Shown here piece by piece: positions 48,977-51,674 of a stretch of DNA of 64,000 bases. Each line of letters begins with the position of its first letter. The stretch's first letter is position 1. The notes under the pieces were generated by a model. It did no database searches and was not told the DNA's origin. It saw only the letters and a program-made list of their open reading frames with translations. The position numbers and the translations under genes are program-made. The stretch is from Escherichia phage WPEC4, in the sequence record PV682947.1; one strand, 5' to 3'.

Positions 48977-49005
48977 GAAAGGAGCCAAATGGCTCCTTTT
49001 CTTAT
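48977..49005. terminator. bidirectional terminator between convergent blocks
   Basis: Perfect hairpin AAAGGAGCC-AAAT-GGCTCCTTT flanked by T/A runs. Confidence 0.65.
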
Positions 49006-51674
49006 TTATAACCCGAAGGAATATTGTTATAATCAGAAAGTTTTGTGCAATACCTAAATAGGTAACTATTAGCTGCTCCACCTAATGTGCTTGTTAATGT
49101 TACTCCTGTTCCTGTAAGATTTGTGCATCCACTAAAGAAAGAAGATAATGCTCCACGTTGACCACAAACCGTTAACCCTAGGTTGTCATTAAAGATTTTA
49201 TTAAAATCTGTAAGTGCTAAACAACCTTGGAATGTAGCTGTTAAAGAGGTCACTTTAGTTGGAATATTATCAAACATTCCTGCTGGAACTTCTGCAAGCG
49301 AGGTGCAATCTTTAAAGGTGTAAGAATATCTTGTAACTTTTGATAGATTCTTAAATAAATCTGAAGGAATAGATGTTAAAGATGTACAACCTTCAAACGT
49401 GTTTGACATTGTTGTCATCGAAGGAAATAAAGTATCACTGAATAATCCTTCAGGGATAGCTATCAAACTTGTGCAGCCAGAGAAGATACCACTTATAGAT
49501 GTTCCGGTGTAAGATGTGTTACTAAAACAATCAGAGGTTATTCGTCTTAAGTTAGCACAACCTTTTAAGAATTGTGAGGTTGGGCTTGTAGAATAACTAA
49601 TCCTGTTTCCGCCCCATAATTCTAAAAGATCTGGGTTTGCTTGCATAGACACATCAACAGTATTAACTACTGAAGCACTTGCAAATTCAATAGCCAGTCT
49701 ATATTCTCCTGCTGGATAACTATCCACTGTAGAGAAAGCTTTATTTCTAAATATTACTTTACTTGAAGGAACTACAACGTCATCCACCTTAACTACAAAG
49801 TTAGCTGGTGTGACAGTACCCGATAAAGTTGGGAACGTAATCGCCCCATCTGCCGAGTGGTTGAAATATCCGTTTAGAACCGTTAAACTACTACTCGGAG
49901 ATGGAGCTAACTCCTTTCCCGCAACAGCATTCACCGTTAAATAAGAACTATCAGAAGCGGTAACAACACCTTGATACGTAGCTGTGCAACCAATCCTACA
50001 ACCACCGTCACCAACACCAGTTATTACGCCAGTTGTAGGATCTACTGTAGCAACATTAGGATCTGTAGTTGTATACTCTACAACCATGCCAGATAAGCTT
50101 GCTGCTCCTGTTGGCGTTATTTCTGCTACCATTGTTTGTGTTGTTCCTACATCCATCGCAGATAAGCTAGGAGTGTAAACACTTAATGTTGAAGCATATC
50201 CTCCAGAGGTATCTGATAAAGTTGTTCCTTCAGCGTTTAAGGCTGTCATACCTGCATCAAAACCACCTTCTGCTTGGAAAGTCATTAAGCCAGTAGACGA
50301 TATTGTCATGTTTGCAGGGGCAGAAGAAGTGTATTTAATATTGAAAAGTTTACCTCCTTCTGGGCTAACAGAATGTGTCAACTGTTTAGTTCCACCTACA
50401 ATACAAACTCCTAAAGAATCTGTAGTTAAGCTAGTTGCCAGCACATCCCCAGTAATCACAGAGCTTGCTATTGGTGTGAATTTATTATAGTTTAGACCAC
50501 TATTGAACAGGTACGAGGCTTTCCCATCTTTCCAAATACCGGAATAATACATATCTCCATTATAAACGAAAAAGGTTCCTTGATAACCTAATTGGTTAGT
50601 AACATCCATATTCAGCGTATGAACGCTTGTGAGCTTATTTATATCCCAGGAACCCACTCCTTCAGGTTTAACTGGTTTTCCTACTTGGAGGGGATCTCCG
50701 CTCGCAGAATCATACCCCAAACCTAAGTTTGCAGTATAGTTCTTACCAATAGCCCACAAGGAATTATTGATCCCAACGAAAAAAGAGTGGCGGCTTGGTG
50801 GAAATTTCCATGTGGAGAAACCTGCTGCAAAGGTGTCCAGTTTAGTGTAAGTTGTTTCTGTATTAGATCTAACATATAAGTAGTTTACTGTACCCGTGCC
50901 ACCGGAGGTATCTCCTACAACTATTGTCTGGGAAACTGTATTAATGTAATCTTTGACATACACTGTTTCAGTAGCAGATATCGTAGCATTGACAAAAGCT
51001 GTTGTTGTGTTATTATTACCTGCTAAACCTTTACTGGCTCCACAAACACGCAAGGTTCCAGCATTGTTGACATAAGAACATTGGTTGTAACCTGCATCAA
51101 AAGCAACCGCTGAACTTGTTATCTGACGAGGAGTAGAAACTTCGTTAGTAGTACTTGCACCTAAACTACCTATTGTGTTTTGACCAGATCCATAAAGAAC
51201 ACCACTATTCATTAACCAGAGGGTGTTGTTGTATCCTCCCTTAACCTCTTTAAGATTGGCTAAAGAGATAGTCCCTGTTATCACAGATGGAAAGCTGGTC
51301 CAAGTAGTTACACATGCATCCGTACCACCTGCTGCTATAGATCCTACCAATCCTGCTGTCAATCCTGAATATTGCCATCCCCCACTGTTAGTTTTAATAA
51401 CAAAACAACGATCTGCGGTAAACACATCCGCTACTACAGTAGAAGCTAAGTAGAAATTATTGAATCGTGCACTACGAGTTCCATCTGCAATCTCACCAAA
51501 AAGGTTTGCGCCTTGAGTAAACAATCTACCATCATTAAGCAAAATTGCTAAACTACTGTTAGAATTACCAGCATTATCTGGGTAATCTAAAGTGATTACT
51601 TTTTTAACAATACCTGCTGGCAGAGGAACTACACCAGTGCTGGTCATAATAGTAAATATTGGAATTGGAAACAT
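49002..51674 (-). CDS. tail fibre / receptor-binding protein with C-terminal BspA-type leucine-rich repeats
   Basis: 890 aa; C-terminus repeats F.GCTSL..IP..LF (FSGCTSLIAIPEGLF, FEGCTSLTSIPSDLF, FKDCTSLAEVPAGMF). Confidence 0.55.
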   Translation of the reverse strand: MFPIPIFTIMTSTGVVPLPAGIVKKVITLDYPDNAGNSNSSLAILLNDGRLFTQGANLFGEIADGTRSARFNNFYLASTVVADVFTADRCFVIKTNSGGWQYSGLTAGLVGSIAAGGTDACVTTWTSFPSVITGTISLANLKEVKGGYNNTLWLMNSGVLYGSGQNTIGSLGASTTNEVSTPRQITSSAVAFDAGYNQCSYVNNAGTLRVCGASKGLAGNNNTTTAFVNATISATETVYVKDYINTVSQTIVVGDTSGGTGTVNYLYVRSNTETTYTKLDTFAAGFSTWKFPPSRHSFFVGINNSLWAIGKNYTANLGLGYDSASGDPLQVGKPVKPEGVGSWDINKLTSVHTLNMDVTNQLGYQGTFFVYNGDMYYSGIWKDGKASYLFNSGLNYNKFTPIASSVITGDVLATSLTTDSLGVCIVGGTKQLTHSVSPEGGKLFNIKYTSSAPANMTISSTGLMTFQAEGGFDAGMTALNAEGTTLSDTSGGYASTLSVYTPSLSAMDVGTTQTMVAEITPTGAASLSGMVVEYTTTDPNVATVDPTTGVITGVGDGGCRIGCTATYQGVVTASDSSYLTVNAVAGKELAPSPSSSLTVLNGYFNHSADGAITFPTLSGTVTPANFVVKVDDVVVPSSKVIFRNKAFSTVDSYPAGEYRLAIEFASASVVNTVDVSMQANPDLLELWGGNRISYSTSPTSQFLKGCANLRRITSDCFSNTSYTGTSISGIFSGCTSLIAIPEGLFSDTLFPSMTTMSNTFEGCTSLTSIPSDLFKNLSKVTRYSYTFKDCTSLAEVPAGMFDNIPTKVTSLTATFQGCLALTDFNKIFNDNLGLTVCGQRGALSSFFSGCTNLTGTGVTLTSTLGGAANSYLFRYCTKLSDYNNIPSGYK

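Follow-up and report, generated by a model that had tools for sequence, protein, structure and literature searches.

A predicted leucine-rich-repeat solenoid in the exchangeable C-terminal tip of a tail protein of Escherichia phage WPEC4

The 64,000-nucleotide stretch of Escherichia phage WPEC4 DNA analysed here (PV682947.1; referred to below as the window) carries on its minus strand, at 49002..51674, an open reading frame (ORF) for a tail protein of 890 amino acids (aa), and the question raised by this locus is what the repeats at the C-terminus of that protein are, where they came from and what they may do for the phage. An earlier note on this DNA, made from the sequence alone, had described the product as a tail fibre protein ending in BspA-type leucine-rich repeats (LRRs), a tip regarded as unusual for a phage and possibly acquired from a host adhesin. 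Sequence comparison showed that the window belongs to a Phapecoctavirus, a phAPEC8-like phage of Escherichia coli. The 890-aa protein shows 100% identity to the product annotated as 'tail protein' in Escherichia phages WPEC1, WPEC2 and WPEC6, is 96–98% identical to its counterpart in ~27 other Phapecoctavirus records and is matched end to end by phrog_11922; the gene product has been named TfpM1 (PMC12695924). The phapecoctaviruses and their relatives are broad-host-range coliphages often proposed for therapy, and the gene products that decide their host range are still unclear (PMC8594841, PMC12695924). Our analysis showed that the repeats are real, that they are predicted to fold into an LRR solenoid and that they form the second half of a cassette which is replaced by unrelated modules in related phages.

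The core motif F-x-[G/D/Y]-C-x-x-L was found at aa 731, 760, 787, 815, 847 and 873, together with a looser seventh copy, LKGCANL, at aa 703, and the spacing from copy to copy is 26–32 residues. The seven repeat units measure 28, 29, 27, 28, 32, 26 and 18 aa, the last one being truncated, and lie on the minus strand at 49485–49568, 49398–49484, 49317–49397, 49233–49316, 49137–49232, 49059–49136 and 49005–49058, respectively. When the whole protein or its last 207 aa was shuffled 20,000 times, the motif occurred on average 0.01 times and at most twice. The array thus has the tandem units of 20–30 residues with a conserved hydrophobic pattern that mark the LRR superfamily, and the observation of C-terminal repeats in a confirmed ORF is correct and statistically solid. 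The range given in the earlier note, 49002–49520, corresponds to aa 719–890 plus the stop codon, and its count of at least four repeats has to be raised to seven, with the array starting ~16 residues further upstream (aa 703, position 49568). The consensus that it proposed, F.GCTSL..IP..LF, is exact at aa 731 and 760 and nearly so at aa 787, but only the core F.GC..L is kept at aa 815, 847 and 873. A search of the cassette with TRF found no tandem repeat at the DNA level, the repeats existing at the protein level only, implying that they are old and do not stem from a recent duplication.

Prediction of the structure with AlphaFold 2 (AF2) placed the LRR from about aa 700 onwards and gave a curved solenoid with one short β-strand per repeat, as in the LRR fold, so that the expectation of the earlier note was confirmed on this point. 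Significant matches to LRR proteins of known structure were also obtained when the 207-aa tip was compared with the PDB using phmmer, the matches including the designed LRR protein 4psj (E 3.5e-7), LRRTM (5a5c, E 1.5e-6) and several variable lymphocyte receptors. A profile built from an alignment of 51 homologous sequences matched the solved BspA-like and TpLRR structures, with E values of 3e-37 for 4fs7, 6e-33 for 4gt6 and 4e-17 for TpLRR, indicating homology to them. On the motif scan and the AF2 model, aa 696–890 (~195 residues; 49005..49589, minus strand) are a genuine LRR solenoid in terms of predicted fold. The contrary explanation, that the motif is a chance or low-complexity pattern without a defined fold, could appeal to the failure of the query to reach the Pfam gathering thresholds; it is judged to be refuted already by these results, and its probability is negligible.

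The placement of the tip within the known LRR families is less direct. Searched with the query itself, Pfam gave a score of 16.8 bits for DUF285 (PF03382) against a cut-off of 25 (E 0.0057) and no match to LRR_5 (PF13306) even at E ≤ 10, and NCBIfam gave 15.2 bits for TIGR02167 ('PARCEL repeat') against a cut-off of 30 (E 0.013); DUF285/PARCEL is the only Pfam and NCBIfam family that the query tip touches at all. The homologues do reach the thresholds. The 115 relatives found at E values from 4e-36 to 1e-3 mostly carry PF13306 and/or PF03382, and among the 51 aligned homologues LRR_5 is matched by 38 (best E 3e-56) and DUF285 by 32 (best E 1e-47), the link of the query to LRR_5 being a transitive one. 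The repeat unit of TpLRR proteins is ~23 aa long, whereas the complete units of the query measure 26–32 aa. Compared with the BspA/TpLRR proteins (LRR_5, PF13306; structures 4fs7, 4gt6 and 6mlx), the query therefore differs in unit length and in the missing LRR_5 match, and its domain sits on a phage tail protein instead of a bacterial surface protein. Compared with the DUF285/PARCEL family (PF03382, TIGR02167), it is similar in repeat length, which is close to 26 aa, and orthologous tail proteins (P0136, P0137 and P0141) hold canonical DUF285 at the same position (E 1e-42). However, the signature W-D/N-x-S-N-V-T-x-M-x-x-M-F of these DUF285 alleles is missing from the query, which has I-P-x-x-L-F in place of W-D-x-S-N-V-T-N-M-x-x-M-F. 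A pairwise comparison of the query LRR with one of the DUF285 alleles showed weak similarity (28% over 113 aa, E 8e-6), and the LRR and DUF285 alleles were for this reason not treated as one allele series. Given its sub-threshold scores, its unit length and the missing signature on the one hand and the matches of its homologues on the other, the tip is a divergent member of the BspA/TpLRR–DUF285 (PARCEL) lineage that passes the threshold of neither Pfam family. The assignment to BspA/TpLRR-type repeats in the earlier note is accordingly right at the level of the lineage.

Alignment of the DNA with that of phAPEC8 revealed that the tip is bounded by sharp borders. Identity to phAPEC8 is 92–100% in 50126–52225 and 95–100% in 47042–48941, falls to 75–80% in a transition zone at 49926–50125 and is at background level (34–44%) from about 49925 to 48990. 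The segment replaced is a recombination cassette of ~930 bp (48990..49925, minus strand), which encodes aa ~584–890 and comprises a β-sandwich and the LRR with the stop codon, followed by some of the intergenic spacer. The neighbouring fibre and spike genes remain 97–100% identical to those of phAPEC8 where the tip has been replaced. The phAPEC8 counterpart gp180 (phAPEC8_00180, 891 aa), like the other TfpM1 alleles of Phapecoctavirus and of the proposed 'Wecvirus', is the product of the same gene at the same position; its first 584 aa are 96–98% identical to those of the query, but its last ~305 aa are unrelated and form a non-LRR, β-rich module.

The same division into a conserved virion-proximal part and a variable distal part was seen in the relatives of the full-length protein, which share the N-terminal ~584 aa and then differ in the C-terminal module, with at least four module types plus tip-less forms. 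These are the LRR module (890 aa, with orthologues down to 57% identity), the non-LRR, β-rich module of phAPEC8 type (888–891 aa), a PKD-like domain followed by a canonical DUF285 LRR (843–859 aa; P0136, Pfam E 1e-42), a further unrelated module (P0135) and proteins with no C-terminal module (565–609 aa). The comparison with related phages suggested in the earlier note thus yielded non-homologous tips at one and the same junction. In the phage collection, the LRR tip is present at ≥91% identity in 35 records and the phAPEC8-type tip at ≥90% in ~39 records. Within the LRR-allele group the cassette differs by 8–9% and the propeller and immunoglobulin (Ig)-like domains that make up the backbone by 19%; the smaller divergence of the cassette fits its horizontal movement between diverged backbones. 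Base composition was considered as a sign of foreign origin and rejected, since the difference in guanine–cytosine content between the LRR part (35%) and the rest of the gene (40%) is too small to use.

The phAPEC8-type module was also seen outside TfpM1. It occurs at 62–92% identity on proteins of phi92-like phages, which are reported to lack TfpM1, and distantly (~25%) on Kagunavirus siphovirus proteins, some of them annotated as minor tail proteins; overall, the annotations of its carriers vary between lateral tail fibre and minor tail protein. Its presence on other proteins implies that this module moves between different carriers as well.

The origin of the LRR was examined in bacterial genomes and among protein homologues. 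The earlier note had suggested a host adhesin as the source. Direct capture from such a gene of the infected E. coli host would be in keeping with the abundance of this repeat type in bacterial surface proteins: an exhaustive search of representative sequences returned 16,933 relatives at E ≤ 0.001, of which 825 reached E ≤ 1e-30, and the highest-scoring ones are giant multi-repeat proteins of 1,000–7,400 aa. Yet no blastn match to the cassette was found in 5,426 complete E. coli genomes, and when one genome of each GTDB species was scanned, the only matches were a mis-binned copy of the phage itself and, at 29% identity, a single Bacteroidales metagenome-assembled genome, in which the LRR lies in BACON + DUF285 proteins adjoining a GH35 β-galactosidase. 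The exhaustive search also corrected a bias, as the homologue search with the 207-aa tip had returned no protein longer than 363 aa and had missed even the 890-aa orthologues, apparently through a length filter, so that the picture of nearest homologues as short phage proteins was distorted by length.

Eight gene contexts examined among the closest short homologues also speak against capture from the host, five being clearly phage, one probably phage, one ambiguous and one bacterial or mobile-element. The five phage contexts consist of a capsid, polyvalent protein and integrase; a baseplate and holin on a 200-kb contig; a position adjoining a tail sheath; a tubulin and Laminin_G; and a tape measure and integrase. 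All ten short homologues scanned match phrog_9915, a phage family of unannotated function which covers the query repeat. Pfam analysis of ten mid-sized top relatives, drawn from a representative library that carries no taxonomy, showed that eight combine the LRR with other domains, four of them having Mfa-like fimbrillin, three BACON and one an InlB-type Flg_new_2 repeat; of the other two, one has LRR_5 only and one is without a match. The scanned cellular relatives carry BACON or Mfa-fimbrillin domains, combinations known mainly from surface proteins of Bacteroidota and not from Enterobacteria. Direct capture from the E. coli host is unsupported by these data and very improbable; an ultimate bacterial origin followed by spread from phage to phage is plausible. 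As to the tip being unusual for a phage, no paper on an LRR phage receptor-binding protein was found, and literature on the LRR as a phage receptor-binding domain, or on the function of an LRR tip, yielded only incidental matches, but the databases annotate many phage proteins as BspA-family or LRR proteins and phrog_9915 covers the repeat. The finding is therefore not very surprising: it is a useful domain assignment and adds no new mechanism or class of system.

The domains that precede the LRR were mapped along the whole protein. Residues 1–400 (50475..51674, minus strand) form an RCC1-like β-propeller, conserved and presumably virion-proximal, on the evidence of Pfam (RCC1/RCC1-like region at aa 40–332), a profile search (HERC2 and UVR8), Foldseek (UVR8, TMt ~0.70) and AF2. 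Residues 401–585 (49920..50474, minus strand) hold two Big_2 Ig-like domains, which are predicted to be β-rich by AF2, match Pfam in two stretches within about aa 410–565 above the cut-off (E 3.7e-7) and are also matched by phrog_215, phrog_28902 and phrog_32204; the conserved part of the protein ends at the close of this region, at SSYLTVNAV. The first half of the cassette, aa 586–695 (49590..49919, minus strand), is a predicted β-sandwich with AF2 strands at aa 598–686 (predicted local distance difference test (pLDDT) ~80–90); it has no significant Pfam match and accompanies the LRR in all LRR-type alleles. The full-length AF2 monomer model (pLDDT 84.5) arranges the chain as propeller (aa 1–400), two Ig-like domains (to aa 585), sandwich (aa 598–690) and LRR, and its predicted template modelling score of 0.54 is as expected for domains on a string. 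No coiled coil, β-helix or collar was seen in the monomer model, by Pfam or by Foldseek, and searches of the full-length profile against the PDB and of the full-length model with Foldseek returned only RCC1-like and Ig matches and no solved phage homologue. As modelled, the monomer is a string of globular domains and does not show the elongated architecture of a classical trimeric fibre or spike, so that 'tail-associated modular protein' is a better label than the 'tail fibre protein' of the earlier note.

The setting of the gene is that of a tail-fibre or receptor-binding protein. In WPEC1 the TfpM1 gene is the last one of the tail module, within the tail-fibre/baseplate cluster; upstream of it lie genes for the baseplate, for a short fibre and the corresponding chaperone, for a 'colanic acid degradation protein' and for a collagen-like tail fibre, and it converges on the replication module. 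With a probability of roughly 0.6, we take the LRR to serve an accessory tail protein as its distal binding module and to influence adsorption or host range. In the proposed mechanism, the sandwich and the solenoid would together make up the exchangeable far end of an accessory protein associated with the tail in phAPEC8-like coliphages. Attachment to the virion is most likely the role of the RCC1-like propeller, the two Big_2 domains would act as a spacer, and the variable tip most likely binds a bacterial surface structure, probably by the concave β-sheet face of the LRR, a contact that may contribute to adsorption or host range. A binding function and the nature of the ligand are what we infer from the gene position, the attachment–spacer–tip architecture, the cassette exchange and a parallel fusion of an LRR to a protein I (gpI) in another phage, described below. 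The adjoining genes for the collagen-like fibre and the colanic-acid-degrading spike and the sharp cassette boundaries against phAPEC8 support this reading, and, by analogy, the swapping of non-homologous tips at one junction is the usual route by which phages re-target receptor-binding proteins.

The same architecture has been weighed against a different target. BspA-family proteins bind host matrix proteins, and Big_2 domains combined with a BspA-type LRR are a typical adhesin architecture, so that the tip might be an adhesin for something other than the receptor, such as mucus or gut-surface glycoproteins or the cells or matrix of other bacteria, and might keep the phage in a favourable niche without setting which strain is infected, much as Ig-like 'adherence to mucus' decoration proteins do. 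The closest cellular relatives, fimbrillin- or BACON-linked surface proteins of a kind known from gut Bacteroidota, fit this possibility, and the tip-less relatives of 565–609 aa imply that the tip is dispensable for infection as such. However, the gene lies in the tail-fibre cluster and not among head-decoration genes, allelic replacement of the cassette type is the pattern of a host-range determinant, and the phAPEC8-type module is also found in other coliphages, on proteins which in the deposited records bear the names lateral tail fibre or minor tail protein; the niche function is improbable on these grounds.

The replacement of the tip in an otherwise constant neighbourhood bears on a further alternative, in which the LRR is a protein–protein docking module inside the virion that holds, for example, another fibre or spike and makes no contact with the host. 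LRRs are classic protein–protein interaction scaffolds, and in phAPEC8-like and phi92-like phages several fibres and spikes have to be accommodated on one baseplate (PMC8594841). A docking partner would be expected to co-vary with the tip, but the neighbouring fibre and spike genes do not; moreover, some alleles have no tip, and it is at the N-terminus, where attachment usually takes place, that the protein is conserved. We regard internal docking as distinctly improbable.

The binding-module reading was further compared with the host-factor requirements reported for the phiWec phages. phiWec188/190 carry the LRR allele (84% identical) and phiWec179 carries the phAPEC8-type tip (98.4%). The former two need yhaH and phiWec179/181/186 need flhD, and both groups need the WaaT-dependent core of the lipopolysaccharide (PMC12548472). 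The relation between allele type and yhaH or flhD dependence is a correlation only, and, because the groups are distinguished by a second fibre protein, TfpL, as well, it is not assignable to TfpM1.

The location of the protein in the virion was approached through phage rV5, as no virion proteome of a Phapecoctavirus was found in the literature. The positional counterpart is rV5 gp27 (1878 aa). Like that of TfpM1, its gene closes the tail-fibre cluster and has bidirectional terminators behind it; it has been called a large lateral tail fibre gene (PMC8594841). The two proteins have homologous N-termini (39% identity over query aa 1–195 in a 212-column alignment, E 5e-27) and Big_2 in common; gp27 differs in having twice the length, and the pairwise comparison revealed no LRR in it. 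Mass spectrometry found gp27 in virions with three peptides, nine spectra and 3.1% coverage (PMC3606486, Table S5). By analogy with this partial homologue, the 890-aa protein would also be located in the virion, and its conserved N-terminal region is a candidate virion-attachment element. The region common to rV5 gp27 is the one that is conserved across all compared alleles.

Several findings weigh against the view that the LRR is a receptor-binding tip. The query stays below threshold for LRR_5 and DUF285 in Pfam and NCBIfam, the monomer model shows no fibrous or trimerization domains typical of tail fibres, and TfpL varies along with TfpM1 in the phiWec phages. The homology to gp27 is limited to the first ~210 aa, and the mass-spectrometric coverage of gp27 is small.

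An independent LRR tip on a tail protein of an enterobacterial phage was observed in the P2-like Klebsiella phage ST16-OXA48phi5.4, the 'tail protein I' of which (NC_049450.1, 23679–26705; 1008 aa) consists of Tail_P2_I, Big_2 and a long BspA/DUF285-type LRR array (LRR_5/DUF285). Like TfpM1, it has a BspA/DUF285-type LRR that is joined through a Big_2 spacer to an attachment domain, and its repeats are 31% identical to the query LRR over 89% of the LRR length. Unlike TfpM1, it has a P2 baseplate protein I instead of the RCC1-like propeller and many more repeats, and it belongs to a temperate phage.

A broader extension, which we hold to be unlikely, is that BspA/DUF285-type LRR cassettes constitute a widespread class of phage receptor-binding tips that are exchanged between phages of unrelated gut hosts and have common ancestors with the fimbrial-tip and BACON-linked adhesins of Bacteroidota type, and that in coliphages such a tip could recognize a protein receptor, for instance an outer-membrane protein or a surface appendage, rather than a glycan. 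If this were true, the difference between the LRR and phAPEC8-type alleles could explain the flhD (flagella) versus yhaH dependence of otherwise near-identical phages. For TfpM1 itself, a domain map and precise cassette boundaries (aa ~584–890) are now available, and, with two common alleles (LRR and phAPEC8-type) in almost identical backbones, a clean allele swap is possible. The results are of use for annotation and for the design of host-range experiments in therapeutic coliphages, and they draw attention to the LRR domain as a kind of phage tip that is common in databases but has received little study.

Some further features of the region were recorded. A hairpin of a bidirectional intrinsic terminator lies directly after the TfpM1 stop codon, at 48977..49000, and is common to the convergent gene at 48058..48945 on the plus strand; a terminator is annotated at the same place in phAPEC8. 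The product of the upstream collagen-like tail fibre gene (51716–53740, minus strand) has Tail_spike_N and collagen repeats. In this gene a stretch at ~52300–52900 is variable against phAPEC8 (50–90% identity) and represents a second allelic hot spot of the fibre cluster; outside it, the aligned part (to 52900) is 97–99% identical to phAPEC8. The TfpM1 protein is also present in a record assigned to Campylobacter phage B15 (96% identity) and in one assigned to Pseudomonas phage PsgM04F (81%); these records are ~150 kb long and Phapecoctavirus-like, and their host labels look doubtful. Finally, the ORF for DNA polymerase I (43049–46381, plus strand) encodes a longer product (1110 aa) than is annotated in phAPEC8 (865 aa). 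The additional ~245 aa begin with CVPMDAQ and end with ITITGN, followed by C, and give weak Pfam matches to Intein_splicing (E 0.007) and LAGLIDADG_3 (E 0.15), and, judged by sequence, this segment is probably an intein with a remnant of a homing endonuclease.

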